From positions 40,396-104,395 of IMG/VR virus record IMGVR_UViG_3300026488_000017: DNA of 64,000 nucleotides; one strand, 5' to 3'. Source of the stretch: a virus (lineage: Duplodnaviria; Heunggongvirae; Uroviricota; Caudoviricetes). A program made the position numbers and the translations under genes. The notes under the pieces are model-generated. The model worked only from the letters and a program-made list of their open reading frames with translations. It ran no database searches and was not told the origin of the DNA. Each line of letters begins with the position of its first letter. The first letter of the stretch is position 1. Below are positions 1,136 through 17,545 of the stretch, one piece after another.

Positions 1136-1166
1136 TTATATAGTATTATAACTAAATGTTGCTTAA
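1136..1166 (-). promoter_or_regulatory. promoter-like element (minus strand TATAAT, plus-strand attata 1145-1150) upstream of the dehydratase gene
   Basis: tagtattataact; 15-20 nt before the RBS and ATG at 1127. Confidence 0.4.
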
Positions 1167-2333: not shown

Positions 2334-2344
2334 TTAGACTCCTC

Positions 2345-2384
2345 ATTTAGAGTATTATAACATAAGCAACCTTAAAGGCTTATA
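2345..2384 (-). promoter_or_regulatory. conserved phage promoter motif (extended -10 TGTTATAATA plus CCTTAAAGG)
   Basis: agtattataacataagcaaccttaaaggctt upstream of gmhB. Confidence 0.45.
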
Positions 2385-3581: not shown

Positions 3582-3597
3582 AGTGTTTCCTTGTTTT

Positions 3598-3618
3598 GAT
3601 TATGTATTATACTGTAAA
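3598..3618 (-). promoter_or_regulatory. promoter-like -10 (gtattatac) upstream of gmhA
   Basis: motif variant; followed by the 20-nt palindrome 3619-3638. Confidence 0.35.
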
Positions 3619-3638
3619 GAAGCTTAATATTAAGCTTC
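3619..3638. other. perfect 20-nt palindrome GAAGCTTAATATTAAGCTTC (possible hairpin or protein-binding site) at the hddA stop / gmhA promoter junction
   Basis: read directly; contains two HindIII-type AAGCTT sites. Confidence 0.4.
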
Positions 3639-4643
3639 TACGACCCACGATTCAGCACCATATTCAGAAAATTGCACATCTTCTGCTTTACCACCGAATT
3701 TTTCTAAGGCTTCTTTCACCTTAAGCTTGGATTCAGGTGTCACCAAAAACATCATAAATCCAGATGCACCAGCTCCTGATAGCTTTCCAGCAAAGGCACC
3801 AGCAGTGATAGCTACACTAAAAAGATTATCCACATAAGCATTACTAATACTGTTAGATGTTTTCTTTTTTTCTTCCCAGGATTGATTCAGAATATTTCCT
3901 AATGAATGGCAATCAGATTTCAGAAGAGCTTCTTTCATCAGTAAAGCGGAATTCTTAAGCTCGTGTAATGCCTCTAATGATTTTTCGTTCTTTTGTGATT
4001 TTATTTGTTCTTCAATAACATCACCTGATGAACGCTGTTTACCCGTGAAATAAATCAGTAAGCTTGAAGAAAGCTCATTCATAAAAGACCGTTTGATTCT
4101 TAATGGATTTACAATCGTTTTATCTTTGTAAAATTCCATAAAATTCCAACCACCGTGAGTAGCACAGAATTGGTCTTGTTTTCCACCTTTTAGATTCAAA
4201 TCCTGGCGTTCAATTTCCCAAGCTAGTCCGGCTATGTCGTATTCACCTAAAGGTAGATTGTAGTATTCCACAAACGCTTGAATGATAGCTACGACCATTG
4301 TACTACTAGAGCCTAGACCTGAACCACCTGGTGCATCAGAATATGTTGTGATATTTAAAGAATCTCTATCGATGTATTTTCTGCCTATTAGACCTTCCCA
4401 AACACCTCTCATCAGTAAACAATTTTCATTCTCATATTCATTATCAAAAACATTTGCTTCTTTAATGTCGGTTGCTTTGAAATGCGTACCCATTGTGTTT
4501 GCTGATATTGTGCAGTAAGCATATTTATTGATAGTCACATTAAGAACATAACCACCAAAATCATCTGAATAAGGAGAAACATCTGTTCCACCTCCACCAA
4601 AACCTAATCTTAAAGGTGCTTTACTTCTTACTTTTCTTTTCAT
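3630..4643 (-). CDS. hddA: D-glycero-alpha-D-manno-heptose 7-phosphate kinase (GHMP kinase)
   Basis: GHMP motifs SKAPLRLGFGGGGTD and PGGSGLGSSS; start moved to the internal Met (4643) to remove the 56-nt overlap with the upstream gene. Confidence 0.7.
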   Translation of the reverse strand: MKRKVRSKAPLRLGFGGGGTDVSPYSDDFGGYVLNVTINKYAYCTISANTMGTHFKATDIKEANVFDNEYENENCLLMRGVWEGLIGRKYIDRDSLNITTYSDAPGGSGLGSSSTMVVAIIQAFVEYYNLPLGEYDIAGLAWEIERQDLNLKGGKQDQFCATHGGWNFMEFYKDKTIVNPLRIKRSFMNELSSSLLIYFTGKQRSSGDVIEEQIKSQKNEKSLEALHELKNSALLMKEALLKSDCHSLGNILNQSWEEKKKTSNSISNAYVDNLFSVAITAGAFAGKLSGAGASGFMMFLVTPESKLKVKEALEKFGGKAEDVQFSEYGAESWVVEA

Positions 4644-4650
4644 TAAATTT

Positions 4651-6156
4651 CTACCACTCATCTTCGTTAATCCCCTCTTCATCTTTTTCTTTACAGATTC
4701 TTTCAAAATCAGCTACTGTAGCAACTTTTGTCATTGTGCTCTTTCGTTTATTCTTTAAACGAATCTTAAATGTTTCTCTCTGTTCCATATATTCTTCATA
4801 AGTTTTTATCTTACTAAGTTTTGTCATAGCCCATCGATAATCTTTATCGGGAATACTGTGAAAGTCGCCTTTTCTAAAAAGTTCTACTTGGTCAAAATAT
4901 GTTCTAAGTTCCATCGCAAAGTGTAAATAAGTCTGTAATGAAATAGCATTAAGATGATTTCTAATACCTTCAATCTCTCCAAATTTCTCTTGAAAAGGTT
5001 TAATACCAGTCATACCATCTTCTCTCCAAGGTGAATATTTCTCTTGGAATTCTTTCCTAGAAAGTTTATTTCCACCTATCGTGTTCATAAGCAAATCTTC
5101 GTAAGCATCTTGTGTTTTCTGCATAAATTCTGCTACATCGGGTGCATCTTTATCTCTACCTAAACAACCCGATACGAGTTTTAATGAATGAGTTTCCTCT
5201 CCATCACGAATAAAAGATTCATCTACAAGTTTTGTATATTTACCGAATGTACTAGCACCAGTGTGTGAAGTTGAATCAAAAGTATAATGAACATCTTTAC
5301 CAAAGAAATCATTATTTAATGCAAATAAGACACCTGATTTAGATGGTCCACCTAATCCTAGAATATGTATAAGTTTTCTATGTTCTTCGGGTACCTCTGT
5401 TAAATCTCTAGGTGCTCTACAATATAAATCGAACATCTGAAAGTAAGGGATAATACCTGATGTAGCTAATGAAAGACCACCAATGTACTCAAAATATTCT
5501 GCTTTCTGTGCATCAGGCATTTCATTGAATACTGAATAAACACCACGAGCATATTCGTTATAGTCTTCGATTTCCCAACCTTGTACAATAACCATTACTT
5601 TAGTATCAGATTTTTCTTTCATAAAAACTTCAATTTGTTCTTTTATGTTAAATCCTGATTCTCGACCTGCATCAAATCTTAATTCTTCAACAAAATATTT
5701 AAGACTGTGGTCCATCTTCATACCTTGTCCAGCATTATTACTACCGGCTATAGTGTGTCGTTTTGCTTCATCCACTAGAATAGGCATCTTATCAAAACTC
5801 ATAGCGTGAGAACTAAATGTTGCTTGACATTTGTAGATTCCTAATTTGATTTCAGGTGTCATAGTTTTACCTAATGTGATAACCTGAAGTCCACCTGAAT
5901 CTGATTGTACCATTAATGTTTTCTCGGGAGTATTTAAACCTATGAGAATATCTTCTGTAGCCTGTTCTGTGAAAGCATTGTAAAGACTTCCTACACCACA
6001 ATGTTCTGTATAATCATCCAATCCAAATAGAACACCTTGAATAAATTCATCGTATTCTTTTGTCATATTTAATTTAACAGCGTGTCGTTGTATTAAGTGT
6101 AATCTTGTGAATGTGGTCATCGCTGATGCGATGTATGTTTTTTTGATATTTGCCAT
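4651..6156 (-). CDS. tRNA-guanine-transglycosylase-family protein, probable DNA 7-deazaguanine transglycosylase (DpdA-like)
   Basis: Three TGT-family motifs in the correct order: SDSGGLQV (compare DSGGFQ), IGGLSLATSG (compare GGLAVGE) and HILGLGGPS (compare YLMGVGxP); no CxCxxC zinc site; directly upstream of queE. Confidence 0.55.
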   Translation of the reverse strand: MANIKKTYIASAMTTFTRLHLIQRHAVKLNMTKEYDEFIQGVLFGLDDYTEHCGVGSLYNAFTEQATEDILIGLNTPEKTLMVQSDSGGLQVITLGKTMTPEIKLGIYKCQATFSSHAMSFDKMPILVDEAKRHTIAGSNNAGQGMKMDHSLKYFVEELRFDAGRESGFNIKEQIEVFMKEKSDTKVMVIVQGWEIEDYNEYARGVYSVFNEMPDAQKAEYFEYIGGLSLATSGIIPYFQMFDLYCRAPRDLTEVPEEHRKLIHILGLGGPSKSGVLFALNNDFFGKDVHYTFDSTSHTGASTFGKYTKLVDESFIRDGEETHSLKLVSGCLGRDKDAPDVAEFMQKTQDAYEDLLMNTIGGNKLSRKEFQEKYSPWREDGMTGIKPFQEKFGEIEGIRNHLNAISLQTYLHFAMELRTYFDQVELFRKGDFHSIPDKDYRWAMTKLSKIKTYEEYMEQRETFKIRLKNKRKSTMTKVATVADFERICKEKDEEGINEDEW

Positions 6157-6167
6157 TTATGTCCTTG

Positions 6168-6212
6168 TTGAGCGTATTATAACATTAATTTGCTTAATAT
6201 TACACGCCTGCC
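6168..6212 (-). promoter_or_regulatory. conserved promoter motif upstream of the TGT-family gene
   Basis: gcgtattataacattaatttgcttaatat. Confidence 0.4.
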
Positions 6213-6973
6213 TGATTGTTCCAGATGCGAATGTGGATTCTATCCGAATACTTGAAACCATTATCGATACATTTCTCCATAACAAATTTAGCATTTTCTT
6301 GAAGTGTTTCATTTGTATCACCAAGTGGCATTAAATAAACATCCATATATACTGGAATTGCTTTAAGAATCTCTTGAATCTCTTTGAAATCTTGCTCCCA
6401 AGATGCTTTAGAACATACAAATTTAAGGTACGATTTAGGTGACATTTCTACGATATTCGTTAAATTGTCGATATTGATTCTTTTGTGCTCTAACTCGCCA
6501 CTATTTGATAGTTTTACTGAAGTCGAAAACATTATCTCTTTTTGGTACTCGCGTGTAAAATTAATATCTAATGCACCATTAGTTTCGATTGTAATCTTAT
6601 GACCACGAGAAACATAGTGAGAAATAGTTCTTTGAAAAACTTCATCTTTCCAATAGATTAAAGGCTCTCCACCAGTGAATACAATATCAGGTTTCGTTAA
6701 AGAGTTCTTACCAAAATCGGGGATTGTAGCATCGATTCTCTCGACTAATTCTTCATATTCTGTGATAACATCCCATTCTTTTTTAAATGATTTATCGACT
6801 GAATAATACGAGTCACAACCAAATTTCTTTTCGCCTGTTATAGGGTCTTCATAAGGTACTTTAAACCCTGCACAAGTAAAATTACATAACGCACTTCTTA
6901 CAAATACAGAAGGGACTCCCATACGAGAACCCTCACCTTGTACTGAATAAAAACATTCCATTAATGAATACAT
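6200..6973 (-). CDS. queE: 7-carboxy-7-deazaguanine synthase (radical SAM)
   Basis: ECFYSVQGEGSRMGVPSVFVRSALCNFTC, plus TGGEP and ETNG motifs typical of QueE. Confidence 0.8.
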   Translation of the reverse strand: MYSLMECFYSVQGEGSRMGVPSVFVRSALCNFTCAGFKVPYEDPITGEKKFGCDSYYSVDKSFKKEWDVITEYEELVERIDATIPDFGKNSLTKPDIVFTGGEPLIYWKDEVFQRTISHYVSRGHKITIETNGALDINFTREYQKEIMFSTSVKLSNSGELEHKRINIDNLTNIVEMSPKSYLKFVCSKASWEQDFKEIQEILKAIPVYMDVYLMPLGDTNETLQENAKFVMEKCIDNGFKYSDRIHIRIWNNQAGV

Positions 6974-6982
6974 ATTTGCTCC

Positions 6983-7492
6983 TTAAGCTAGTCTTAGGTT
7001 ACCTAGTTCGTTGATTAAGATAATATCTGCTTCAGTATAATCTCCATAAGCTGTTAATTGCTCATTAAGTTTTGCTAATGATTCTTCATCTGCTTCAAGT
7101 TTTTCTGAAGGAGTGATACGATACATTGTTGGACCTTCTGAACCTTCTTCATTCTCTGTTGGTGTACTAACGATGAAACCTTGTTTAGCATAATCACCAA
7201 GAACATAAAATCTCTCTGGAACAACAACACCAACTACTGTTAAGGCACCATCTAATGCTTCTTCTGATTCGTTAAATGCTACACCATCAAGTGTACTTTC
7301 TGAAACCAAGTTAGCCATTCTCTTTAAGTTAGAAGTATAACCACCATTTAATACGATAATAGTTTTGCCTTTTTCAGCCCACTCTCCGTATAACGCATTG
7401 TCTGTTAATGAACATTCAGCTACAGCGTGTGCAGTTTGAATACCTTTTTGAATATCTGATAGATACATATTTGTAATTGAGTAAAATCTCAT
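6983..7492 (-). CDS. hypothetical protein (acidic C-terminal half)
   Basis: ORF with an upstream promoter-like motif; no recognisable motifs. Confidence 0.4.
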   Translation of the reverse strand: MRFYSITNMYLSDIQKGIQTAHAVAECSLTDNALYGEWAEKGKTIIVLNGGYTSNLKRMANLVSESTLDGVAFNESEEALDGALTVVGVVVPERFYVLGDYAKQGFIVSTPTENEEGSEGPTMYRITPSEKLEADEESLAKLNEQLTAYGDYTEADIILINELGNLRLA

Positions 7493-7509
7493 TTTAGTCC
7501 TTTGTGTTT

Positions 7510-7545
7510 GTTTGAGTAATTATACAATATCTTTACTTAATAAAA
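7510..7545 (-). promoter_or_regulatory. promoter motif variant (TGTATAAT)
   Basis: gagtaattatacaatatctttacttaat. Confidence 0.35.
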
Positions 7546-7897
7546 TTACTTTTTCTTTGTAAGCTTCTAATGTTTCATTCACATTATCTGCTAGTACATC
7601 TGGTTCATATTTTTTGTACGGCATAATATCATCGTGAGAATCGAAAATACTAGAATCCTGGGGTACAACCATACCAACCAGCGTCTTCTTGTCTTCTAAC
7701 CACTCAAAAAATAAACCATTTTCTATGAGAACGGCTTCTAACGAATGCAGTTCTGCTGTGTTCATCACCTCGAGAATTTCAATGCCTTTAACATCTTTCT
7801 TGAATTCGTTAATGATACCACCAGCTTGTGAGATAATAGAGGCTAAACGATTGAATGAAATTTTCAAATCTTTTCTTATGAGTATTTTGCTTTTCAT
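7520..7897 (-). CDS. hypothetical protein
   Basis: ORF in a co-directional gene train; no motif recognised. Confidence 0.4.
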   Translation of the reverse strand: MKSKILIRKDLKISFNRLASIISQAGGIINEFKKDVKGIEILEVMNTAELHSLEAVLIENGLFFEWLEDKKTLVGMVVPQDSSIFDSHDDIMPYKKYEPDVLADNVNETLEAYKEKVILLSKDIV

Positions 7898-8127
7898 TTA
7901 CCCAGCCTCTGTATAAAATAATTGCTTTGTTGGTATTGAACGATATACATTTCTGCCTGAGCAAGATTCTCGTAAATAAAGGCATAGATTTCAGCTACAC
8001 CTTCACCTTCTTTTAAATCTATATCAAAGCTCATAAATGTTTTCGTTCTCTTTATTGATACTGCATCCATATTTATGAGCACTATCTGTAAATCGGGGAA
8101 CCTTTGTACTTTATTTGTTAAATTCAT
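7894..8127 (-). CDS. hypothetical small protein
   Basis: short ORF overlapping its neighbours by 4 nt in the operon arrangement. Confidence 0.3.
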   Translation of the reverse strand: MNLTNKVQRFPDLQIVLINMDAVSIKRTKTFMSFDIDLKEGEGVAEIYAFIYENLAQAEMYIVQYQQSNYFIQRLGK

Positions 8128-8464
8128 CTATAATCCTATATAAAAACATATTAAGGATGAAAATTTTCATTTCTTTTGAAGAGTATTTTATGAGAGCTTC
8201 CATCTGATATGAAAATTCAAGAGCACCTAGCTCCTTGAAGCTATCAGAATCGTTCCCATAGATAGTACCTAACATCGGTAGGACCAATGCATTGTAGCCA
8301 TCGTATGCTCCTACGAGGTGAACGATACTAAATTCCAAATCATCCTGACTAGTTTTTTCGCCTCTTCTAATTTTATGAAAAACTTCCATAATCTTTTGTT
8401 CATAATCGTGTTTTTCTGTGAACCCAACGATACCGTATAGCGTGTCTGCTTCGTGATTAATCAA
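8111..8464 (-). CDS. hypothetical protein (TTG start)
   Basis: ORF; the first codon is TTG according to the sequence. Confidence 0.35.
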   Translation of the reverse strand: MINHEADTLYGIVGFTEKHDYEQKIMEVFHKIRRGEKTSQDDLEFSIVHLVGAYDGYNALVLPMLGTIYGNDSDSFKELGALEFSYQMEALIKYSSKEMKIFILNMFLYRIIDEFNK

Positions 8465-8618
8465 TGTATTGTCCTACCACATATTCAGATAATTCCATAT
8501 GGACCTTAAATTTCTGGTTTGTCGTTTTGTGTTGCCAAATATCTTTCGAGCAATCTATGCACTCGAAATGCCTATTAAAGTCTTGTACTGGAATGTTTGT
8601 GTTGTTTGCTGGGCTCAT
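8457..8618 (-). CDS. small hypothetical protein (53 aa, C-x2-C)
   Basis: not in the ORF track; ATG at 8618 is preceded by AAAGGAAAAAGA and by promoter motif copy 8626-8672; read by hand as MSPANNTNIPVQDFNRHFECIDCSKDIW... Confidence 0.35.
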   Translation of the reverse strand: MSPANNTNIPVQDFNRHFECIDCSKDIWQHKTTNQKFKVHMELSEYVVGQYID

Positions 8619-8625
8619 CTTTTTC

Positions 8626-8672
8626 CTTTATTTTGTATTATATCTAAGTTTTACTTAATTTGACCACTCACC
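8626..8672 (-). promoter_or_regulatory. promoter motif variant
   Basis: ttttgtattatatctaagttttacttaat, upstream of the small ORF 8457-8618. Confidence 0.35.
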
Positions 8673-9524
8673 TGTCCCATTAGTAATAGGAATCAGAATT
8701 GCTCTTTCATCTGTGATAGTAGCAAGAGTCTGCTCCATTAGCATTACTCGTACTTCACTACGCAGACCGTATTTATTAAATAAGAAAGGTATAGAATTAA
8801 TAACTGGTCTTTTGTAAATTGTATTATGTACAGCACTATCATAAGATGCTTGTACTGAAACAAGTTCTTTGCTAATATGTTCAGGGTTCGCAGATGTATA
8901 ATTCTCTAAATAAGCTTCAGTAACAGCAAGTTTCTCGACATCAGCTAAATCACCATCTGTTTGATATTTACTCACTAAGTCATCAAGATATTCTTTTCTG
9001 GTATCTATGAATTTGGTTTGTATTTTTGTTAGACTATTCTTAATCTTAATATTAAAACGAGATTTATTGATTGTTTCTAGTTTTTGTTCTTGTATTAAAT
9101 CAGAAGCAAGAACTTTTGTTAATTCGTTATCTAAATCTTTACTAGCTTCACTAGGAGATACATCTTCTTCGGTACTTAATATTTCTGCTCTAGGTCCAAT
9201 TAATGAAATGTCTGCGTGTATTTTACTCATCACTTCATCTGGTATTTCTACACCAATAGGTATATTTCTTGAGCTAATTTTAGTGCTAGTATCAAAAAAT
9301 CTACTCATACCCAGACCATACATATCTCTATCTTCTTTGATGGCTTTTATCTGAGCATTCAGCATCTGAATCAAAGGGTCTTTTTCTTCTTTTGTTAAAT
9401 CAACCTCGTAAATTTCTTCGAGTTTCGCTTTTACTCTATCAATGTCAATACTAAAGGCCTTGTAAGCAGTATCAGCAATTAAAAAATCTTTTTGTTCTTT
9501 TTTGTTGTTGTACCAGTTAAACAT
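8655..9524 (-). CDS. hypothetical protein
   Basis: 289-aa ORF, no motif recognised. Confidence 0.45.
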   Translation of the reverse strand: MFNWYNNKKEQKDFLIADTAYKAFSIDIDRVKAKLEEIYEVDLTKEEKDPLIQMLNAQIKAIKEDRDMYGLGMSRFFDTSTKISSRNIPIGVEIPDEVMSKIHADISLIGPRAEILSTEEDVSPSEASKDLDNELTKVLASDLIQEQKLETINKSRFNIKIKNSLTKIQTKFIDTRKEYLDDLVSKYQTDGDLADVEKLAVTEAYLENYTSANPEHISKELVSVQASYDSAVHNTIYKRPVINSIPFLFNKYGLRSEVRVMLMEQTLATITDERAILIPITNGTGEWSN

Positions 9525-9533
9525 ATTGTCTCC

Positions 9534-10109
9534 CTATTCTTGCATCAATGATTTTAGTGTATCAGTAACCTCATTCAGGTCTTTTTTCAATGAAGCAATA
9601 TTCCTAGTAACACCAGAGATATTTTTTACCTCTTTAGAAATATCAGTAAATGCTCCACCGATGCTAGAAATCGCTTCAGTCATATCACTAAGTACATCAT
9701 TCATACCGCTTATCGTTGCTGAGTACTCAGCTCTTACGCTCTCAACCCGTGTATCGATACTTGTTTGTGTTTCGATTAACTGATTGGTATTTTTTGTGAC
9801 AATCTGTGCAAGTTCGATGTTGAATTTTTCTTGGACGGCATCTAAGTTTTTTGTAACCATTTCTTTGATGTAGTTTTCAATATCGTAAGCTTTCATATGC
9901 TGTGAATGCAATTCATTCTTGTTTTCTACGAGAATATCCCAAGACTCTCTAACGGCTTCATTACTTAAATCTAAATGGAAATTGATATTATCCCATATAA
10001 TAGTTGCTGTATCTCCAGAAAATGATAACACTGCATCTAAAAGAGGCACTAGATAAGTTACATTCTCGCCGTTTTGGTTTCTAGTTAATTTTACTGTACT
10101 TTTTAACAT
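9534..10109 (-). CDS. hypothetical coiled-coil protein
   Basis: ORF with promoter motif copy immediately upstream (10128-10175). Confidence 0.45.
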   Translation of the reverse strand: MLKSTVKLTRNQNGENVTYLVPLLDAVLSFSGDTATIIWDNINFHLDLSNEAVRESWDILVENKNELHSQHMKAYDIENYIKEMVTKNLDAVQEKFNIELAQIVTKNTNQLIETQTSIDTRVESVRAEYSATISGMNDVLSDMTEAISSIGGAFTDISKEVKNISGVTRNIASLKKDLNEVTDTLKSLMQE

Positions 10110-10127
10110 TTCTTTCCTTTTTGTGTT

Positions 10128-10175
10128 CTTTCTTTATATGTAATATTATAACATAAGCAACCTTAAAGGCTACTT
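10128..10175 (-). promoter_or_regulatory. conserved promoter motif (full copy)
   Basis: ctttatatgtaatattataacataagcaaccttaaaggct. Confidence 0.5.
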
Positions 10176-11358
10176 AGTTGGCACCAGTTGAACTTGAAGT
10201 CGATTCTTCAGTTTTAGTTGAAAGAAGTGCTGCTGTTTGACGGTCACCTAATTGCTTCATATCGTGTTGAACACCTGAGAGTTCCTTGATACTCTTAGTT
10301 TGAAGAGCAATTTGATTTTTTGTCTTCTCGATAAGCTTGTCGTGAGCATCTAAACGGCCTTTTGACATTCTAGTTAAACGGTCAGTTTGTGAAGTGGTAA
10401 TGTTTAAATCAACCACATCAATCATTGCCTTGTTAATTTTAGCAAAGTTATGCTCTTCGATGTCATTAACGAGTTGCAAAGTACTATCAAACATTTCTTT
10501 ATATTGTAGTAAGTGGTTAAGACCAGTTGCAATAGTTAAATCATCTAAGAAGTTGTTCTTAATCTTAGGAAGTAACGATGTAATAGCAAAAGTCGAACTT
10601 TGTGCACTTTCGATAATGATACCAACTTGGTCAATCTTCGATGTACTTTGAATAAGAGCTTCTTTAACTTGAATAATCATATTTCTTGCTTGAAAGTTCT
10701 CTTTTGGAGAAGTATCAGGATTAGCTAGTATATCAGTAAGTTCAGTTTCTAAGTCCTCAAGTACACTTAAATCGGCATCACGGCGAGTTTTGATTTCCAT
10801 TACAGAAAAGGTTGTTTTCTCTAAAGTCTTTTGTTTATTCTCTAAAGTAGCAAATAATCTCTCTGCTGCTTCCTTAATGTTACCTGAAGCTAGTTGTTGC
10901 TTATCGGCTTCAGTCTTTACATCTGTCACTAAACCAGCAATTGTCTTAGCACCTGGTAACGAGAGTAAACCTGAACCGATTTTTGACATAAAACCAATTG
11001 ATACAGCTTCGTTAGCTCCAGCAAATGCTTCTAGTTCAGCGATAGCTTGTGTAATCATTTCTTTTGTTTCATCTAATTCCAACATCGAAATGTCTTCAGC
11101 AAGTCTTTGAGAAACTATATAAGCTTCATCTTGTAAAGTCGTGAACTGATTTTTCAATGCATCAACCGTACGAACTTCTTTTTCTTGTGCTTCAACCATT
11201 TCTACTTCTACTAATTCTGTTTGAACTTCTTCCACTTTAATTCCTTTAATTTTTGATTCTTGAGCTCTTGCTTCAGCCATTTGTGCTTTCGTTCTACGAG
11301 TTCTTTTTGGTTTTGTTTCTACAATTTCTACTTCGATTGGGTTTGAGTCGTCTGACAT
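10174..11358 (-). CDS. hypothetical coiled-coil protein (basic N-terminus)
   Basis: 394-aa ORF, lysine/arginine-rich N-terminus, long predicted coiled coils; promoter motif at 11378-11412. Confidence 0.45.
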   Translation of the reverse strand: MSDDSNPIEVEIVETKPKRTRRTKAQMAEARAQESKIKGIKVEEVQTELVEVEMVEAQEKEVRTVDALKNQFTTLQDEAYIVSQRLAEDISMLELDETKEMITQAIAELEAFAGANEAVSIGFMSKIGSGLLSLPGAKTIAGLVTDVKTEADKQQLASGNIKEAAERLFATLENKQKTLEKTTFSVMEIKTRRDADLSVLEDLETELTDILANPDTSPKENFQARNMIIQVKEALIQSTSKIDQVGIIIESAQSSTFAITSLLPKIKNNFLDDLTIATGLNHLLQYKEMFDSTLQLVNDIEEHNFAKINKAMIDVVDLNITTSQTDRLTRMSKGRLDAHDKLIEKTKNQIALQTKSIKELSGVQHDMKQLGDRQTAALLSTKTEESTSSSTGAN

Positions 11359-11377
11359 TTTCTTTCCTTCTTGTTTA

Positions 11378-11412
11378 TATGTTGTATTATAACATACTTT
11401 GACTTAAAATCT
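11378..11412 (-). promoter_or_regulatory. promoter motif variant
   Basis: gttgtattataacatactttgacttaaa. Confidence 0.4.
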
Positions 11413-11458
11413 CCTTAAAGATTCTAAATATCTCTTAATCTCTTTTGAGACTAACAAC

Positions 11459-11530
11459 TTTCTTTATATGTAATATTATAACATAATCAACCTTAAGGCT
11501 TTATAAATATCAATAAAATATAGGTGAAAA
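11459..11530. promoter_or_regulatory. full promoter motif copy fused to a plus-strand promoter (TTTATAAATA) at a strand-switch; drives the ankyrin gene 11532
   Basis: ctttatatgtaatattataacataatcaaccttaaggctttataaatatcaataaaatataggtgaaaatATG; near-identical to the copy at 33296-33374. Confidence 0.45.
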
Positions 11531-11531
11531 T

Positions 11532-11939
11532 ATGAAAAGTTCATACGCTGATGATATTTGGTACACTGCTGCAACACTAAGCGATAATGCATTACTAAAA
11601 GATTTACACAAAGAAAAGATTCCAGGTATGGATATTTACTATGAGTTACATTCGTGTACACCATTTCAAGCAAGTTGCTATGAAAATAATGAAGAGGCAG
11701 CAAAACTGTTTATTAAATGGGGAGTAGATTTAGATAGAAAAGATGGTGATGGCGATACAATGCTTTCATATTGTTTCGATACCGAAAAGTGGTCAATAGT
11801 GTTAGAGATACTGAAACACAAACCGTCATTAGAAGGTATCAATGATTTCTTAATTACTCAAGCACCTAAAAGAATTCAGAAAGCATTCCAAAAAGTATCT
11901 GGTCTCAAAAAACTAGGTAAGTACGCAGATTTATTATAA
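11532..11939 (+). CDS. ankyrin-repeat protein with conserved C-terminal KKLGKYADLL tail
   Basis: ankyrin-like GDGDTMLSY repeat; C-terminus ...GLKKLGKYADLL is shared with four other ORFs in the window. Confidence 0.6.
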   Translation: MKSSYADDIWYTAATLSDNALLKDLHKEKIPGMDIYYELHSCTPFQASCYENNEEAAKLFIKWGVDLDRKDGDGDTMLSYCFDTEKWSIVLEILKHKPSLEGINDFLITQAPKRIQKAFQKVSGLKKLGKYADLL

Positions 11940-12161
11940 TAGCAAGTGAGGATGGTTCTCTTTGATTGTTTCTAGTAACTTCAAAGTTTTTGAATCTTCT
12001 ATCAGTTTACTAAATAGCATTTGAGCCTCTCGTTCTGTACCCTTTCTATAAACCCATTCATAGCTACCAGGTGACTCTCCAGTTTTTCGGTCTAAGACCA
12101 TTAAGACCATTCCACTCATAGTTTTCTTAAAATAAAATTTATCTCTTAGTGGTTTATCCAT
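11934..12161 (-). CDS. small hypothetical protein, PHLxL C-terminal family
   Basis: convergent with and overlapping the ankyrin gene stop; C-terminus LKLLETIKENHPHLLL is paralogous to 15014..15361. Confidence 0.4.
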   Translation of the reverse strand: MDKPLRDKFYFKKTMSGMVLMVLDRKTGESPGSYEWVYRKGTEREAQMLFSKLIEDSKTLKLLETIKENHPHLLL

Positions 12162-12241
12162 TCTGTGCCTCGTATATTATTTTTATGGCATAGTACACCT
12201 GAAGATGTGTACCACCATCGAATAAAATTTTAACAGCTTCT

Positions 12242-13537
12242 TCAAGCGTAAATATCATTGTACGAGAATTGCCCTAATTCCACTTCATTCCCCATTGGCA
12301 TAATAAGACCTTTCATCATATTATGAATAACTGCTTCAGGAATGAATTTCCCTTCAGTCTCGTTTCGTGTTACATTTCGTTCAAAAATAGTATCGTAATC
12401 AGTACAGAAAAAACGGCTTCTTGTATCATATTTTTTGAGACGCTCATTGAATTTTTGACGGTAACCTTTGTCTTTATTTTCTATCTGAAACGAGAACCAT
12501 TTTCTTCGTGCTTTAGGCCCAACATTTGTCATATCGATAATAATATCATCACCTCTTAGTACAGCACACTCGAACTGCGAACGAATCATACGGTCGATTT
12601 CTGATTGGTCGTCCGATGTAAGAAGCGTCCAAATCTCCCCATATTTAAGAGATTTCCCATATTTGAAGCGACCTAGCTCTAATAGTGTAGCGTCTCTGCT
12701 AATCACTGTGGTATCCTCATCGACATTCTCTTTAATATAAGTGCTCTTACCTGATAGCGGTACGCCTACGAGTGCTGTGATACTACGGTCACTAATGATT
12801 CTAGTGCCTTCATCCATATCTCTATCAGGCCAGAATTTGTCCATAAAAGGCTTACCATAAAGAACGGTACCTAGCAATGAACCTTCATCAGACCTAGCAT
12901 CAGCAGATGGTGAGAAACGACCAGTGGAATCATAACGAACCTGATTAACAAATAACGGAAATAAACTTTTGTGGTTTTTCCATCGTTCTGCTACTTTCTC
13001 AGGTTTGTGCTCTTTACCATCCTTGATGCTGTCAAAAAGTGTACCGTGTAATGAGATAATCGTAAGCACATCTTGCATTTCTGAAGGAAAAATCACACCC
13101 ATTTTCACAAGCTCTTGTAACGGCTTTACAGCTTTATATACTGAAATCCCTTCGTGGCCTCTGAAATGCGTTTTCCATTCTCTAGCTAAAGCCTTTGTCT
13201 TAGAGTGCTCTTTATCCGCCTCACGAAGCTCGTTAGATTCTGTGTGGGTAGGTTTAGGCTTATTGAATGGAATAACCTCTCTCGATGCTGGCTTACCAGT
13301 GTCGTGTAGTAATGCTGCTAAAAGATTTACTGTCTCAGCTCTATCATTCTGTGCTTGTAAACATACCATCATCGTGTGAGTCCATACAGAATCTTCCAAA
13401 TGATATGGATTAGGTTCTGAATCTACAGCGGCGTGATTACTAGCTTTCATTTCGTTAGCTAAATCTGTGAATTCCATTTGGAACCAATTCACTAGTTCTG
13501 CCATTGATGGTTTTTGTTTTTCTTTAAAATAATTCAT
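12242..13537 (-). CDS. HD-domain phosphohydrolase fused to P-loop kinase domain (polynucleotide kinase/phosphatase-like)
   Basis: N-terminal HD motif H...LLHDTGKP; C-terminal Walker A GVPLSGKSTYIKE. Confidence 0.5.
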   Translation of the reverse strand: MNYFKEKQKPSMAELVNWFQMEFTDLANEMKASNHAAVDSEPNPYHLEDSVWTHTMMVCLQAQNDRAETVNLLAALLHDTGKPASREVIPFNKPKPTHTESNELREADKEHSKTKALAREWKTHFRGHEGISVYKAVKPLQELVKMGVIFPSEMQDVLTIISLHGTLFDSIKDGKEHKPEKVAERWKNHKSLFPLFVNQVRYDSTGRFSPSADARSDEGSLLGTVLYGKPFMDKFWPDRDMDEGTRIISDRSITALVGVPLSGKSTYIKENVDEDTTVISRDATLLELGRFKYGKSLKYGEIWTLLTSDDQSEIDRMIRSQFECAVLRGDDIIIDMTNVGPKARRKWFSFQIENKDKGYRQKFNERLKKYDTRSRFFCTDYDTIFERNVTRNETEGKFIPEAVIHNMMKGLIMPMGNEVELGQFSYNDIYA

Positions 13538-13548
13538 TTTTATTCCTT

Positions 13549-13632
13549 CTTATTATATGTATTATAACATACCGTTACTTAAAGGCTCATTAAGGCTCAT
13601 TGAATTTATAAATACTTTCAAAAGGTGACAAT
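13549..13632. promoter_or_regulatory. divergent promoter region (minus: HD/kinase gene; plus: ankyrin array)
   Basis: atatgtattataacataccgttacttaaaggctc ... ttgaatttataaatactttcaaaaggtgacaatATG. Confidence 0.45.
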
Positions 13633-14244
13633 ATGGATTTTGATTCTGAAACTCTTCAGTACTACATAATGAAAGGTAAAGTAATGGAACTAAAGGCAGA
13701 AGAGAAAAAAGGTACGCTTAAGAAATTAGTGAATGTGGATTTTGATAATGGTAAGTCACCACTTAATACAGCCATTTACAAAAAAACATCTACTATCGTG
13801 ACTATATTAATCGATAATGGTGCTGATGTAAATTACATAGATGGTAATGGTGGTCTCCCATTAGTGAATTCTGCCAACACAAACACTTTCATTATAGCTC
13901 CTTTACTCAAAGCTGGTGCTGAAGTAAACAAAGAGAGTACTTATGGTTCAACTGCTTTCACAAAAGTATTAGGTGATAGAGATAGAAAAGGTGAAGGTCT
14001 TGCTGTAGCACTTATATCTGATAAACATTTTGATATTACTAAAGAAGAATTTAAACCTGATATGCTTCTACAGCAATCGATTAAAAATAAATGGGATAGA
14101 GTAACGGCACTCATTCTCAAAACGGGATTTGATTTCGATTACGAGGACCTCAGAAATGTAGGTGATGGTACAAAAAAGATTATAGATAAACATCTAGGTC
14201 TAAAAAAATTAGGTAAGTACGCAGACTTACTAGGAGACATATAA
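13633..14244 (+). CDS. ankyrin-repeat protein with KKLGKYADLLGDI C-terminus
   Basis: ankyrin repeats (SPLNTAIY...NGADVN...GNGGLPLV...AGAEVN); conserved tail. Confidence 0.6.
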   Translation: MDFDSETLQYYIMKGKVMELKAEEKKGTLKKLVNVDFDNGKSPLNTAIYKKTSTIVTILIDNGADVNYIDGNGGLPLVNSANTNTFIIAPLLKAGAEVNKESTYGSTAFTKVLGDRDRKGEGLAVALISDKHFDITKEEFKPDMLLQQSIKNKWDRVTALILKTGFDFDYEDLRNVGDGTKKIIDKHLGLKKLGKYADLLGDI

Positions 14245-14723
14245 TGACTGTAAAACAATTTGAAGAAGAATTAGAAATGTATTCGGTAGACTTTGCTAAA
14301 GATGGAAGAACATTTTTAATGCAGTATGCAGAACTAGGTAATAATAAAATAGTTGATTACTTAATAAAGAAGAAAGCCAAATTAAATAAACAAGATGATA
14401 ATGGTATAACTGCTTTATATACTGCTGCCGTTAGGGATAGAAAATACATAGTAAATGCACTCATCAAAGCTGGTGCTGATGTAGATGTTCAAGATACTGA
14501 AGGAGATACGGCTCTTCATCGTGTAATGTACAATAGAGGTTCTAAGAAAATCGTAGAAATTCTTATACTAGCTGGTGCTGATTTAAGTATCAAAAATGAA
14601 GATGGTCATACAGCAGAAGATTTAATGATTGGTGAATACAAGAAAGTATTTTTATCATCAGTTAAAAAAGTGAAAGGTATGAAAAAATTAGGTAAGTACG
14701 CTGACTTGCTAGGAGATATATAA
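14244..14723 (+). CDS. ankyrin-repeat protein with KKLGKYADLLGDI C-terminus
   Basis: ankyrin repeats (NGITALYTAA, EGDTALHRV); conserved tail; ATG overlaps the upstream stop (ATAATG). Confidence 0.6.
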   Translation: MTVKQFEEELEMYSVDFAKDGRTFLMQYAELGNNKIVDYLIKKKAKLNKQDDNGITALYTAAVRDRKYIVNALIKAGADVDVQDTEGDTALHRVMYNRGSKKIVEILILAGADLSIKNEDGHTAEDLMIGEYKKVFLSSVKKVKGMKKLGKYADLLGDI

Positions 14724-15019
14724 TGAGTAGAGTTAGAATAACAGCTGTCATAGATGGTACATTCTATTACACTAGGTCGTATGAGGATAATGAATCACTA
14801 AAAGCTAGTGTAGATAGTATAGCAAATAGCGAAGTGAAGACACAGCTATTACGCTCAGATGCCAAAGAGTTATCGTATGAAAAATTTCTGAATGATTACA
14901 AAGATGGTAAGAATATTGTTTATTTTTGGATGGATGGTAAATGGATTAAAGATACAACGAAGAATATTATTAAAAATATTGCTCGTAAAAAAATAGGTAA
15001 ATACGCAGACCTATTATAG
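14723..15019 (+). CDS. hypothetical protein with KKIGKYADLL C-terminus (no ankyrin)
   Basis: shares only the C-terminal peptide with the ankyrin family. Confidence 0.45.
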   Translation: MSRVRITAVIDGTFYYTRSYEDNESLKASVDSIANSEVKTQLLRSDAKELSYEKFLNDYKDGKNIVYFWMDGKWIKDTTKNIIKNIARKKIGKYADLL

Positions 15020-15361
15020 AAATAAGTGAGGTTCATTTTCTTTGAGCTTCAGAATATCTACCCCAAAACCTTCTAACAAAAAATCATAATAATCAATAAG
15101 ATTTTCTACACGATTTAGATTTTCCATTACATTCCAAAATAAAGATGTTATTCTATTCATATCAGAAGCTTGTACTGATACAGAACCAAACGCACAACGA
15201 CCAAAATCCCCAACAATAGCATTGTACTCAAAATATAACATACCCAAAGAAATTTTATCTTTCTCGATGATTCGTTTCTCCTTGTGTTTCAGGACCCAAT
15301 TCTTGATATATTCTTTACCATAGAGAGTAGGGTTGTCAAAAGAGTTGATGTGTACTATCAT
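15014..15361 (-). CDS. hypothetical protein, PHLxL C-terminal family
   Basis: C-terminus LKLKENEPHLFL is paralogous to 11934..12161; convergent with and overlapping the end of the array. Confidence 0.4.
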   Translation of the reverse strand: MIVHINSFDNPTLYGKEYIKNWVLKHKEKRIIEKDKISLGMLYFEYNAIVGDFGRCAFGSVSVQASDMNRITSLFWNVMENLNRVENLIDYYDFLLEGFGVDILKLKENEPHLFL

Positions 15362-15362
15362 A

Positions 15363-15908
15363 TTATTTTACTAATTCAACATCACAAGTAACTTCATCTT
15401 GGTAGAACCAGTTCGTGTAGCACTTAGTGCTTATATTCAGGTAACCATTCTTTTCATAGAATAAACCATATTCGAAATACCCTTCTTTATTATCTCTGTT
15501 ATTATAGCTTACAATAAGCTCAGAAGAATTTCTATCAACGATGCTATAATTACCTCTCACAAACATTAATCCACTTTTTTGAACTACATTCGTTTCTGAA
15601 GTACCTTGGAACTGCGCTACTACTGAAAACCAAACGATAATAAACATTATTATTGCACTTACATAAATCTTGAATGTGCTATCCCACAATATGTCTATAT
15701 CTATAAAGAATATAGATACAGCATAAAAAACAAAAACGCCAATAAATAATCCGTATGAATCAGGGTTAATGAACACCAATATAGGGAATAACGGTATAAA
15801 CAGTACAGCCAAAACTTTCGATAATTTTTCTGTGTTTAATTCTCTTTTAGTCATTACAGTCCTTCTACTTTTAGATATCCACTTGGAGTCACTTTTGAAT
15901 CTGACCAA
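15363..15908 (-). CDS. membrane protein
   Basis: three predicted TM helices (LAVLFIPLFPILVFI, LFIGVFVFYAVSIFFI, IIMFIIVWFSVVA). Confidence 0.4.
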   Translation of the reverse strand: MVRFKSDSKWISKSRRTVMTKRELNTEKLSKVLAVLFIPLFPILVFINPDSYGLFIGVFVFYAVSIFFIDIDILWDSTFKIYVSAIIMFIIVWFSVVAQFQGTSETNVVQKSGLMFVRGNYSIVDRNSSELIVSYNNRDNKEGYFEYGLFYEKNGYLNISTKCYTNWFYQDEVTCDVELVK

Positions 15909-16345
15909 CTATTACTATATATTTCAATCGCCGTAATGTTTTTATCTCTTAGGTACATTGATTTATATTTGTAATATGTGCTTTCATCTAATTTACGGAA
16001 TAAGCCTATTGAAGTGTCTAAATCTACAATTATCTGCTTATTATCTACAAATAATAGGTTTTGATATACTAGTTTTTCTGTATTAGAAGTTTCATCAAAC
16101 ACGATAGATAAGTATATACCAGCTACTATTAGACCGATAAGCGTATATAATACTGGACCAACTGTATCATCTGTTACCTGAGTCAAAAACCAAGTAAATG
16201 TCCAAATACCTACAAGCAATGCTATAGATATTAACCCAAAACTCACGAAATCAAAATACATCATTACGAATGGTATTGGTAATGCCACTAACCAAGTCAC
16301 AAATATCTTGATTTTATATGTGTTAAATACTCTTTTCGTTTCCAT
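15854..16345 (-). CDS. membrane protein
   Basis: three TM helices at the N-terminus; overlaps the downstream ORF, so either start may be shorter than listed. Confidence 0.4.
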   Translation of the reverse strand: METKRVFNTYKIKIFVTWLVALPIPFVMMYFDFVSFGLISIALLVGIWTFTWFLTQVTDDTVGPVLYTLIGLIVAGIYLSIVFDETSNTEKLVYQNLLFVDNKQIIVDLDTSIGLFRKLDESTYYKYKSMYLRDKNITAIEIYSNSWSDSKVTPSGYLKVEGL

Positions 16346-16614
16346 TATTTTCCTTCCTTCTCTAATCTTAATTGGTATCTTGATTTTGAGTTCTCACAAC
16401 CACATTCTGAATGTTCATCATTTTCATCATCGTAGAAATCATCACCACAATGTTCACATATCGAAGCTTTGAAATGCTTTAAATCTACCCACTCAACATC
16501 TTCTGACTTACCTATTGATTCGAATGCTAACTTAGCAGAAACACCGTCACTAAAATTTAATGTCATATCTTCACCTGAGTTCGGTCTAACGAATAATTCA
16601 AAAATATCTTTCAT
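16345..16614 (-). CDS. small Cys-rich (zinc-ribbon-like) protein
   Basis: CEHCGDDFYDDENDEHSECGCE; promoter motif copy upstream (16628-16675). Confidence 0.4.
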   Translation of the reverse strand: MKDIFELFVRPNSGEDMTLNFSDGVSAKLAFESIGKSEDVEWVDLKHFKASICEHCGDDFYDDENDEHSECGCENSKSRYQLRLEKEGK

Positions 16615-16627
16615 AATCTATCCTTTG

Positions 16628-16675
16628 TGTCTTTATATGTAATATTATAACATAAAGAACCTTAAGGTGTACTGA
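16628..16675 (-). promoter_or_regulatory. conserved promoter motif (full copy)
   Basis: ctttatatgtaatattataacataaagaaccttaaggtgt. Confidence 0.5.
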
Positions 16676-16679
16676 ATCG

Positions 16680-17489
16680 CTAGAATTCGTACTGTTTTAC
16701 TCTAGCTAGTTCATTTTCTTTCGGGTATCCAAGTGCATTACATAACATTGTCGTACTGTACACTTCTTTTTCTAATGTAAAGTGTTGATGGCCAAATACC
16801 CAAAATTTAGCAGGTGTATCATCAACCATTTGTTCACCATCAAAATTATAGAAACCAGTACCTTCATCTTGGACAAATTCTTCTGGTGTGAAAGATGCGT
16901 GAGGCATAGGGTTGATATGAGAAACGATAATATCACAACCCTTATGGATATTCTGGAGTTTTGGTCGTTCGACCATTAGAACATCGTAGAAATCTGTATA
17001 ACCTTTGATTAAAACGCTGTCATTACTGTAACGCTTCCATAATGTCAAAGGGTTACAGAATGCATTTACTTTGTTACAGTACGAACCATCATACCATCCC
17101 ATAGCTCCACCAATCTTAATACCTTTGTACTCAACGATATCGCCATCTAGCATATGAATTTTGTCATTATCCTTAAACATTTCTTTGAGCTCTATTAAAC
17201 GAGCATCACTATTTCCGTATTTCTTTTCTTGATTCATATTGATTAAATACATATCGTGATTACCAGTAACGAAAAATAATTCTTTATAGAAATATTTAAC
17301 AAGAAATTCAAAGAATGCTTTTGTTTGGCTGTTGTAGTGAGATAAATCCCCAGCTACGATAAGAATCTCACCGTGCTTATGGCCTTCATCAAACATTTTA
17401 TTCTTACAGAATGTAAACATCTTATTTTCATTAGCGTTTGGTTTAATATGGAAATCAAGGTGTAAATCTGATATAATGTCGAATTTCAT
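16680..17489 (-). CDS. calcineurin-like metallophosphoesterase
   Basis: DLHLD ... GDLSH ... GNHD metallophosphatase motifs. Confidence 0.55.
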   Translation of the reverse strand: MKFDIISDLHLDFHIKPNANENKMFTFCKNKMFDEGHKHGEILIVAGDLSHYNSQTKAFFEFLVKYFYKELFFVTGNHDMYLINMNQEKKYGNSDARLIELKEMFKDNDKIHMLDGDIVEYKGIKIGGAMGWYDGSYCNKVNAFCNPLTLWKRYSNDSVLIKGYTDFYDVLMVERPKLQNIHKGCDIIVSHINPMPHASFTPEEFVQDEGTGFYNFDGEQMVDDTPAKFWVFGHQHFTLEKEVYSTTMLCNALGYPKENELARVKQYEF

Positions 17490-17504
17490 CTATTTTCCTT
17501 TTAA

Positions 17505-17545
17505 TTTACTGTATTATAACATAAAAATACTTAAAAGGAGATTAA
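17505..17545 (-). promoter_or_regulatory. promoter motif variant
   Basis: actgtattataacataaaaatacttaaaagg. Confidence 0.4.

Follow-up and report, generated by a model that had tools for sequence, protein, structure and literature searches.

The window analysed here, a 64,000-nt stretch of IMG/VR record IMGVR_UViG_3300026488_000017 (positions 40,396-104,395 of that record), carries a family of repeated intergenic promoter modules, the focal copy of which occupies positions 10128-10175 of the window on the minus strand. The source genome of 331,651 bp (ENA ERZ27262635 k141_314747) encodes a T4-type family-B DNA polymerase, the best matches of which, in Campylobacter phages, share just 30% identity, along with a gp41-like helicase, a gp62-like clamp-loader subunit, a UvsX-like recombinase and tail-fibre/baseplate domains; given this size and these T4-like genes, it therefore belongs to an uncultivated T4-like jumbo phage. 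The phage is known from metagenomes only and has no close relative among deposited phages; a megablast search of positions 9000-14000 against 50,697 phage records produced no match.

The focal module reads aagtaGCCTTTAAGGttgcttaTGTTATAATattacatataaag on the minus strand, with AAGGA as ribosome-binding site behind it and the start codon ATG at 10109. Its part TGTTATAAT recurs in 16 copies across the window, exclusively on the minus strand, compared with 2.4 +/- 1.5 in shuffled sequences, none of 100 of which reached 16, and an nhmmer profile built from these copies recovered the 16 strong copies and one extra at 47444-47391. The core common to a broader set, TTAAG-N11-TATAAT, is present 23 times, again on the minus strand only, against a mononucleotide shuffle expectation of 0.23; the two boxes are not found together anywhere in the window at gaps of 6-10, 12-15 or 17-19 nt, and a gap of 16 nt yields a single match, on the plus strand. 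Three CTAAG variants bring the family to 26 (yTAAG-N11-TATAAT) and one TATACT variant to 27 modules, all on the minus strand and with identical spacing. The first-pass annotation had described at least 25 near-identical copies; 27 do share the short core, but near-identity is confined to about 16-17 of them, with some 10 having the core alone in common. The repeat unit spans 45-60 bases, and a start codon lies 18-55 nt downstream of most modules, the exceptions having longer leaders or standing farther out in a tandem pair. A further 6 and 3-4 yTAAG/TATAAT sites lie beyond the window, in 10 kb of flanking contig sequence on either side. The members of the family and the open reading frames (ORFs) or genes that they precede are as follows.

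10128-10175, minus: focal module; TTAAG 10166-10162, palindrome CCTTTAAGG 10169-10161, TGT 10153-10151, TATAAT 10150-10145, then ATTACATATAAAG
~10137-10139, minus: predicted transcription start site (TSS) of the focal module, inferred from pVir analogues; downstream gene start 10109
56-77, minus: strong-class module (TTAAG-N11-TATAAT with TGT); downstream gene beyond the window
1145-1166, minus: minimal-class module (no TGn), before GDP-mannose-dehydratase-like gene 90-1127
2354-2375, minus: strong-class module with palindrome CCTTTAAGG, before 1863-2333
3606-3627, minus: minimal-class module within the 18-nt palindrome AGCTTAATATTAAGCT, before GmhA-like gene 3012-3581
6176-6197, minus: module before 4651-6156
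7519-7540, minus: minimal-class module before 6983-7492
8637-8658, minus: minimal-class module before small ORF 8457-8618
11386-11407, minus: module, proximal of a tandem pair, before 10174-11358
11475-11496, minus: module, distal of the tandem pair, palindrome CCTTAAGG, back-to-back with late promoter 11502-11509
13561-13582, minus: module before kinase-like gene 12242-13537, in a divergent region shared with late promoter 13607-13614
16644-16665, minus: module with palindrome CCTTAAGG, before 16345-16614; 48/50 identity to a module of another phage (L012)
17513-17534, minus: module before metallophosphatase gene 16680-17489
32580-32601, minus: module (TGATATAAT) within ORF 32471-32905, 119 nt before SPFH/Band-7 gene 31529-32461
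33319-33340, minus: CTAAG variant before 32886-33290, back-to-back with late promoter 33346-33353
41164-41185, minus: module before 40817-41143
46087-46108, minus: module with palindrome CCTTAAGG, before small ORF 45822-46064
47156-47177, minus: module before membrane-protein gene 46693-47112
47391-47444, minus: variant with -10 TATACT (cttcTTAAGGtctagtaTGTTATACT), before ORF 47185-47376
50804-50825, minus: module before family-B DNA polymerase gene 47825-50749
51146-51167, minus: CTAAG variant before 50822-51115
52625-52646, minus: minimal-class module before DnaB/gp41-like helicase gene 51175-52596
55225-55246, minus: minimal-class module with an unusually long 118-nt leader, then HU-like DNA-binding protein gene 54820-55107
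57844-57865, minus: minimal-class module before 57613-57825
59524-59545, minus: minimal-class module before M17-peptidase gene 58143-59504
60842-60863, minus: module (TGATATAAT) before UvsX/RecA-like gene 59743-60813
61841-61862, minus: CTAAG variant before 61676-61819, with a 46-nt stretch 100% identical to a module in IMG/VR 3300026488_000015

The tandem modules at 11386-11407 and 11475-11496 lie 89 nt apart, and both precede the single gene 10174-11358. The genes behind the modules encode the DNA polymerase, the gp41-like helicase, the UvsX-like recombinase, enzymes of nucleotide metabolism and DNA modification, and small ORFs, and their upstream regions, read gene by gene, contain AAGGA ribosome-binding sites. 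The assignment of the modules as promoters of non-late genes (replication, nucleotide metabolism, small ORFs) is supported, and the module family is real and most probably functional.

In a position matrix built from the 26 core copies, in which TATAAT is present in 26/26 by search design, T-27, A-26, A-25 and G-24 are each found in all 26 copies and T-28 in 23. Conservation is also high at T-17 (24/26) and at A-16, T-15 and G-14 (21/26 each), which together make up a T-rich, TG-type extended -10, the element that the first-pass annotation had recognized; A-6 is likewise (near-)invariant, and the start region is conserved as c/tTACATATAAAG, with ATTACATATAAAG directly behind TATAAT in the focal copy. 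About eight window copies lack TGn and bear TTAAG and TATAAT alone. No TTGACA-like -35 hexamer is apparent in the matrix of 26 copies, and the upstream element is indeed too near the -10, at a gap of 11 nt, to serve as a canonical -35; a canonical -35/-10 scan of positions 1-20000 found 63 matches, below the 92 +/- 11 obtained in shuffles, and missed most of the modules. A second, weaker TTAAk lies at -39 to -35, 11 nt above the proximal TTAAG at -28 to -24 (T17/T18/A14/A17 of 26 copies; exact TTAA in 10/26), and is much clearer in related phages than in the window copies. Laid on this distal element, the Campylobacter jejuni '-35 region' 10-mer TTTAAGTnTT would be separated from the -10 by an 18-nt spacer, compared with 19 nt in cj0183.

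The palindromic CCTTAA(A)GG element to which attention had been drawn earlier is perfect in five copies only, in which a strict CCTT(T)AAGG (CCTTAAGG or CCTTTAAGG) stands beside the -10 (2370, 10161, 11491, 16660 and 46103); across the 26 core copies, the right half is invariant but the left half is weak, with C-30 in 12/26 copies and position -29 divided among T13/A8/C3. The information content is correspondingly lopsided, with 2.47 bits at G-24 versus 0.59 at C-30 and 0.15 at -29. Furthermore, the symmetry centres of the 8-mer and 9-mer palindromes are half a base pair apart, while the register of TTAAG with the -10 is fixed, and three strong copies carry GCTCTAAGG instead, a non-palindromic sequence. 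Because the conservation is asymmetric and there are two centres while TTAAG stays in place, the palindrome is not the recognized unit, contrary to what had been proposed.

Since the best protein matches are to Campylobacter phages and the ribosome-binding sites read AAGGA, the modules were compared with the Campylobacter literature. Sigma70 promoters of C. jejuni are described as TGxTATAAT without a clear -35, preceded by a periodic pattern; the ribosome-binding site reads AAGGA and the leaders measure 20-50 nt (Dugar et al., 2013; PMC3656092). Consensus sequences have been given as TTTAAGTnTT for the '-35 region' and TTTTTTTG for the -16 region (Wosten, 1998, as cited in PMC3824568). The phage modules share with these RpoD promoters the extended -10 TGnTATAAT, the lack of TTGACA, a TTAAG-containing upstream element, the upstream periodicity of about 11 nt, the AAGGA site and leaders of similar length. 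They differ in having an invariant proximal TTAAG at a fixed spacing, whereas upstream conservation in the host is weak and its consensus is placed at the -35 region; moreover, the phage copies also share the start region ATTACATATAAAG, and the host in the case of the present phage is a putative one. Petersen 2003 is said to be a further source on C. jejuni RpoD promoters, in terms of a -35 region or a periodic A/T signal.

Functional evidence for the architecture comes from start sites in uninfected cells. Plasmid pVir of C. jejuni 81-176 (NC_008770) carries seven TTAAG-N11-TATAAT sites, all on the gene strand, for which TSSs were predicted from sequence, at hexamer end +7, before the TSS table was consulted (11323, 16269, 16611, 25676, 29076, 30011 and 31257); all seven coincide with TSSs mapped by differential RNA-seq in uninfected cells (Dugar et al., 2013, Table S5; PMC3656092). 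The proximal TTAAG is also found at mapped chromosomal promoters of C. jejuni, namely, those of the signal recognition particle (SRP) RNA, argC and lysA (gap 10), Cj0260c (gap 11) and Cj0089 (gap 12), and other mapped chromosomal promoters carry TTAAG at gaps of 20-22 nt. Because these starts were recorded in uninfected cells, the Campylobacter RNA polymerase uses the TTAAG/TATAAT architecture without phage proteins. Consequently, the phage-encoded transcription factor or sigma appropriator postulated earlier is not required, given that TTAAG-N11-TATAAT fires in uninfected C. jejuni from pVir and at SRP RNA, argC and Cj0260c, and the suggestion that transcripts start 6-8 nt after TATAAT agrees, by analogy, with the starts measured for the same architecture elsewhere (+7 in 7/7 pVir cases). 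pVir itself repeats a nearly identical 51-nt promoter cassette, AAAGGTATAGATTAAGTATAGATTAAGTATAAAAAAGGTATAATTATAATA, before several unrelated small genes (11270-11323, 16216-16269, 25623-25676, 29023-29076, 29958-30011 and 31204-31257), with a more divergent copy before parA (TSS 16611); these cassettes are the plasmid counterpart of the phage cassette arrangement.

The same architecture is common in cultivated Campylobacter phages. Across the whole NCTC12673 genome, TTAAG and TAyAAT are separated by 10, 11 and 12 nt in 8, 19 and 5 cases, respectively, and by 21, 22 and 23 nt in 7, 19 and 3. The first 50 kb of CP81 contain 10 sites with a gap of 11 nt; the exact TTAAG-N11-TATAAT accounts for nine, and the N22 version is present in seven cases, both on the gene strand without exception. 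CP220 has 13 gap-11 sites in its first 50 kb, often without TGn, and T4 has none in its first 50 kb. In the GenBank entry of NCTC12673 (GU296433; Kropinski et al., 2011), TTAAGnnnnnnTTAAGn8TGnTATAAT is already annotated as 'promoter, extended -10 region', the annotated features reading TTAAGnnnnnnTTAAGnnnnnnnnTGnTATAAT, and RNA-seq of NCTC12673 infection has been reported to validate the predicted host promoters (PMC6024767). Two 'novel A/T-rich motifs' are mentioned by Sacher 2018. The promoter class is thus not specific to one phage group, contrary to the earlier suggestion. All three Campylobacter phages (Eucampyvirinae) are T4-like myoviruses with TTAAG-N6-TTAAG-N8-TGn-TATAAT on the gene strand before replication-type genes; they differ from the present phage in their genome size (130-180 kb vs 331 kb) and in their proteins, which are only about 30% identical (DNA polymerase). 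Spacing is also looser in NCTC12673 (10-12 nt, compared with always 11 nt here), and the flanks of the boxes are unconserved there, whereas the present phage group has near-identical cassettes of 45-60 nt.

These cassettes are shared with other uncultivated phages. An exact 24-mer of the module matched two IMG/VR contigs, 3300026488_000015 and 3300026488_000025, which carry 50 TTAAG-N11-TATAAT sites on a single strand, with a gap of 11 nt throughout. At the DNA level, the modules alone align between the window and these contigs, with up to 46/46 identity, and only 6 of the 89 window proteins have matches in the two contigs (114 kb covered), at 25-44% identity. The closest inter-genome pairs of modules (e.g. 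48/50 and 46/46) precede non-homologous ORFs in the different phages. A degenerate pattern scan of IMG/VR (TTAAG-N8-TGTTATAAT) was uninformative, yielding mostly single chance matches among the matches listed.

Repeated promoter cassettes have been described in T4-like phages as PeSL and PmSL (Arbiol et al., 2010; PMC2839356; Comeau et al., 2014; PMC4122927), the PeSL consisting of a stem-loop and an early promoter (Comeau et al., 2014; PMC4122927). The resemblance is considerable: a T4-like genome with many intergenic cassettes (27 here) that combine a sigma70-type early promoter, a Shine-Dalgarno sequence and a start codon, some copies with a stem-loop, and identical cassettes beside unrelated genes, consistent with recombinational shuffling. 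In PeSLs, however, a -35/N17/-10 promoter has its stem-loop just above the -35, whereas the modules have no -35, any hairpin overlaps the upstream TTAAG box and most copies lack a convincing stem. Judging from sequence, the modules appear to behave like repeated PeSL promoter cassettes. In architecture they are the same as the NCTC12673 promoters, set in PeSL-like repeated cassettes and partnered by T4-type late promoters.

Taken together, these observations lead us to favour, with a probability of roughly 0.7, the interpretation that the modules are Campylobacterota housekeeping (RpoD/sigma70)-type promoters which the phage uses as its pre-late (early/middle) class. By analogy with pVir and the chromosomal genes, the modules of the present phage would be read by the unmodified host polymerase, the holoenzyme binding chiefly via TATAAT and the T-rich TG 'extended -10/-16' region. 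The TTAAG pentamer 11 nt above TATAAT would take the place of the TTGACA -35 box, and the second TTAAk, one helical turn higher, would in many copies occupy the site of the C. jejuni '-35 region'. Transcription would begin about 6-8 nt past the hexamer, within the conserved ACATATAAAG (~10137-10139 in the focal copy), to give a leader of 12-50 nt ending in the AAGGA ribosome-binding site. Near-identical cassettes stand before unrelated genes, both within this genome and in distantly related phages, a minority of them probably bearing a short hairpin with TTAA as its loop, and the partner at strand switches is the T4-type late promoter TATAAATA. Several features point to a host among the Campylobacterota: the type of promoter, the ribosome-binding site, the relatives among phages and the GDP-mannose-dehydratase-like gene 90-1127, which is 72% identical to its Campylobacter concisus counterpart.

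Several considerations weigh against this interpretation. No direct link to a host, in the form of a CRISPR spacer, a tRNA or a prophage, was found, and the window is devoid of tRNA genes. A gap of 11 nt is too short for the classical contact of sigma region 4 with the -35 and resembles the geometry of the T4 MotA box. Inspection for regulators covered about 84 kb of the 331-kb genome. The chromosomal examples stem from a text search of TSS tables that was biased to TTAAG-containing sequences, and activity of the pVir copies might conceivably require a plasmid factor. Finally, the 45-kb C. jejuni plasmid pTet lacks the gap-11 motif, so that TTAAG-N11 is not a universal feature of host promoters; the pTet result was at first read as the sign of a phage-specific element, but is outweighed by the pVir and chromosomal TSS data.

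A bolder proposition goes further: TTAAG at its rigid 11-nt gap might be recognized not by sigma region 4 in the classical manner but by a factor of its own, whether a conserved protein of the phage, one of the host or a compact sigma/alpha contact of an unusual kind, in a distinct recognition mode common to Campylobacterota, their plasmids and their T4-like phages. The 45-60-nt cassettes might, in addition, be mobile regulatory units that distant jumbo phages actively exchange. As a whole, we consider this unlikely.

Also doubtful, indeed quite improbable, is that the modules are activator-dependent middle promoters, at which a phage or host protein would bind the TTAAG boxes near -26/-37 and recruit a polymerase whose sigma region 4 cannot reach the -35, in the manner of MotA/AsiA or PhoB. 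The MotA box of T4, (a/t)(a/t)(a/t)TGCTTtA, is centred at -30 and lies 12 +/- 1 nt from the -10, and the pho boxes bound by PhoB are direct repeats with an 11-bp period that replace the -35. The modules recall these systems in the rigid 11-nt gap between box and -10, close to the MotA-box spacing, in their direct repeats with an 11-bp period, in the lack of TGn from about eight window copies and many CP220 copies, which have TTAAG and TATAAT only, and in a part of the strong class, aaaGCTTTA, that is reminiscent of TGCTTtA; the absence of the motif from pTet would also fit. Like the MotA-dependent middle promoters of T4, the modules combine an excellent -10 with an upstream box ending about 11-13 nt from it, in place of a -35, in a T4-like phage. 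The layout of Mot-box promoters has been described elsewhere (PMC4122927). Nevertheless, transcription starts from this architecture in uninfected C. jejuni, both at 7/7 pVir sites and at chromosomal genes, and the invariant bases are TTAAG rather than GCTT, only about half of the copies having G/C at -31/-30. When the window's small and medium ORFs were scanned with Pfam and PHROGs, neither MotA nor AsiA was detected; among the small ORFs, no sigma or other transcription-factor family was detected either, the HU-like protein being the sole DNA-binding match (matches to 'Serglycin' in concatenated-ORF scans were artefacts of the Gly-Ser linkers), and neither MotA nor AsiA is among the precomputed Pfam matches of the flank genes. 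The annotated genome of NCTC12673, which has the same promoters, lists gp55 but neither MotA nor AsiA, and no other pre-late promoter class from which such a factor could first be expressed is visible in the window. Identity with the MotA box was rejected on sequence: despite a comparable spacing, the invariant bases are different, no MotA/AsiA was found in the ~84 kb inspected and, by analogy with the C. jejuni sites, the promoters would be active in uninfected cells.

Still harder to sustain is the notion that the palindrome serves mainly as an RNA hairpin, either an intrinsic terminator or a 3'-end stabilizer of the upstream gene, so that the module would be a terminator-promoter composite in the strict PeSL sense (PeSLs being by definition a stem-loop plus an early promoter; PMC4122927). 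The complementarity of the arms around TTAA is 2.90 consecutive pairs within copies versus 2.21 +/- 0.12 after permutation (z = 5.8), although this test is inflated by sub-families of shared ancestry; various stems are maintained by compensatory or G-U changes (AGTAGCC/GGTTGCT, AGTTAC/GTAACT, CTTAC/GTAAG and AAGGAACC/GGTTCTTT), and a U-rich stretch follows the arms. However, at least six pairs can form in just 9/81 copies and at least five in 12/81, the stems are AT-rich, the mean folding z-score of the upstream regions relative to shuffles is only -0.69, and a terminator scan of positions 1-20000 called none at any module. Nor would a hairpin explain the invariant TTAAG and its fixed distance to TATAAT. 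A terminator as the main function was thus rejected, folding, the terminator scan and arm permutation supporting a minority of copies only; the hairpin is a sub-feature of that minority, not the explanation of the modules. Least credible of all is the literal earlier proposal that CCTTAAGG serves as operator for a repressor or activator acting as a dimer: the perfect 8- or 9-nt palindrome of five copies would suit it, but the position matrix contradicts symmetric half-sites, the centres shift by half a base pair with TTAAG in register, three copies carry the non-palindromic GCTCTAAGG, and no palindrome is present in the copies of the Campylobacter phages and of pVir.

At three strand switches, the modules face a plus-strand motif, GCTTTATAAATA, that contains the T4 late-promoter octamer TATAAATA; the GCTT of this motif is part of the minus-strand module. 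These bidirectional regions had been recognized previously and hold up, with plus-strand octamers at 11502-11509, 13607-13614 and 33346-33353, 18-22 nt before plus-strand start codons; the second conserved promoter reported there is present, but its identity as a T4-type late promoter had been missed. The octamer shows no overall enrichment in the window (12 found vs 13 expected), and its positioning alone is significant: 8-9 of the 12 lie 18-35 nt before start codons, without a -35, and 5 of the 12 are fully intergenic, compared with 5.8% of the window (binomial p = 3.6e-4). The octamers lying before start codons are the following.

11502-11509, plus: T4-type late promoter TATAAATA, 22 nt before ankyrin-like gene 11532-11939
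13607-13614, plus: T4-type late promoter, 18 nt before 13633-14244
33346-33353, plus: T4-type late promoter, 21 nt before 33375-33761, then tail-protein genes
38048-38055, plus: late-promoter-like TATAAATA, then Shine-Dalgarno and ATG at ~38083
29741-29748, minus: T4-type late promoter, 24 nt before 1114-aa tail-fibre gene 26372-29716
45819-45826, minus: late-promoter-like TATAAATA, then Shine-Dalgarno and ATG at ~45787
47801-47808, minus: T4-type late promoter, 23 nt before basic-protein gene 47448-47777
61300-61307, minus: T4-type late promoter, 18 nt before ankyrin gene 60871-61281
21044-21051, minus: possible late promoter, 35 nt before 20343-21008, inside the end of the preceding ORF

The genes behind the octamers encode the 1114-aa tail fibre, tail proteins, ankyrin-repeat proteins and a basic protein. 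Because the modules and TATAAATA precede different gene sets, the window therefore contains two promoter classes, TTAAG/TATAAT modules for replication, nucleotide-metabolism, DNA-modification and small genes, and TATAAATA for late-looking genes. Late promoters of T4 are read by the phage sigma factor gp55, with gp33 and gp45. The window resembles T4 in the exact octamer placed, without a -35, shortly before tail-fibre, tail and other late-looking genes, and differs in the lack of overall enrichment of the octamer and in that neither gp55 nor gp33 was seen in the ~84 kb of the phage genome inspected. Late-type TATAAATA promoters also co-occur with TTAAG promoters in NCTC12673, in which gp55 is annotated, and two divergent gene pairs of that phage have nearly palindromic back-to-back TATAAATA pairs (15448(+)/15470(-) and 71398(+)/71421(-)). 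In many strong module copies of the window, the upstream part at -41 to -31 (e.g. 41185-41198, 47177-47190 and 61862-61875) reads TTTAATAAAGC, the opposite strand of which, GCTTTATTAAA, is one indel from the GCTTTATAAATA of the three bidirectional regions; given this near-match, many unidirectional modules may be decayed bidirectional early/late cassettes, or the reverse. The conserved TATAAAG in the downstream part of the modules might conceivably serve as a weak late promoter.

The late-type promoters are associated with a further peculiarity. Thirteen otherwise differing proteins, several with ankyrin repeats, share the C-terminal sequence K(K/R)LGKYADLL, at times extended by GDI, GDD, D or R; of these proteins, six are encoded by the source phage (11532-11939, 13633-14244, 14244-14723 and 14723-15019 on the plus strand, 60871-61281 on the minus strand, and 18225-18770 of the source-phage segment L146) and seven by the two IMG/VR relatives (bearers in L004, L010, L011 and L013). 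Those encoded in the window all lie behind TATAAATA late-type promoters, and none was found in the whole of NCTC12673 or in the first 50 kb of CP81 and CP220. The sequence may be a targeting, packaging or degradation tag.

Other genes of the phage broaden this picture of its gene content. The long module-driven block at 90-6973 and L146 11101-17170 encodes sugar-nucleotide pathway proteins (GDP-mannose-dehydratase-like, HAD phosphatase, nucleotidyl transferase, SIS/GmhA-like isomerase and GHMP kinase) and 7-deazaguanine-type proteins (radical-SAM QueE-like, GTP cyclohydrolase I, PTPS/QueD-like and phosphoribosyltransferase), a combination that suggests DNA hypermodification. Campylobacter phages are known for modified guanine. 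The minus-strand gene 17542-19272 encodes an outer-membrane protein of 576 aa that resembles TonB-dependent receptors (PF00593) and has an N-terminus like a signal peptide; its 10 relatives among 5.8 billion proteins, mostly in large phage-like contigs, carried no host information. On the plus strand, a membrane histidine-kinase-like protein (HATPase_c; 39635-40825) is encoded behind a 226-aa protein (38952-39632) that, by eye, resembles a stand-alone receiver domain and has no Pfam match; the two may form a phage-borne two-component pair. An M17 leucyl-aminopeptidase-like protein is encoded at 58143-59504 on the minus strand, and a NAMPT/NAPRTase-like enzyme with an adjoining NUDIX protein, just beyond the window (L144 3806-5206), suggests NAD salvage.

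The modules are well defined but do not represent a new type of control element, and as a discovery they are modest, because the architecture has already been annotated in NCTC12673 and the start sites have been mapped in C. jejuni. They nonetheless provide an unusually clean natural consensus for Campylobacter-type promoters, with TTAAG 11 nt from TATAAT and often repeated one helical turn upstream. In Epsilonproteobacteria, recognition of the upstream region by the polymerase is poorly understood, and the cassettes would make good in vitro templates, as well as being usable for strong synthetic Campylobacter promoters. For an uncultivated 331-kb T4-like phage, they offer a clue to the host lineage, the Campylobacterota, and, with pre-late cassettes on the one hand and TATAAATA late promoters on the other, a ready-made map of its transcription.

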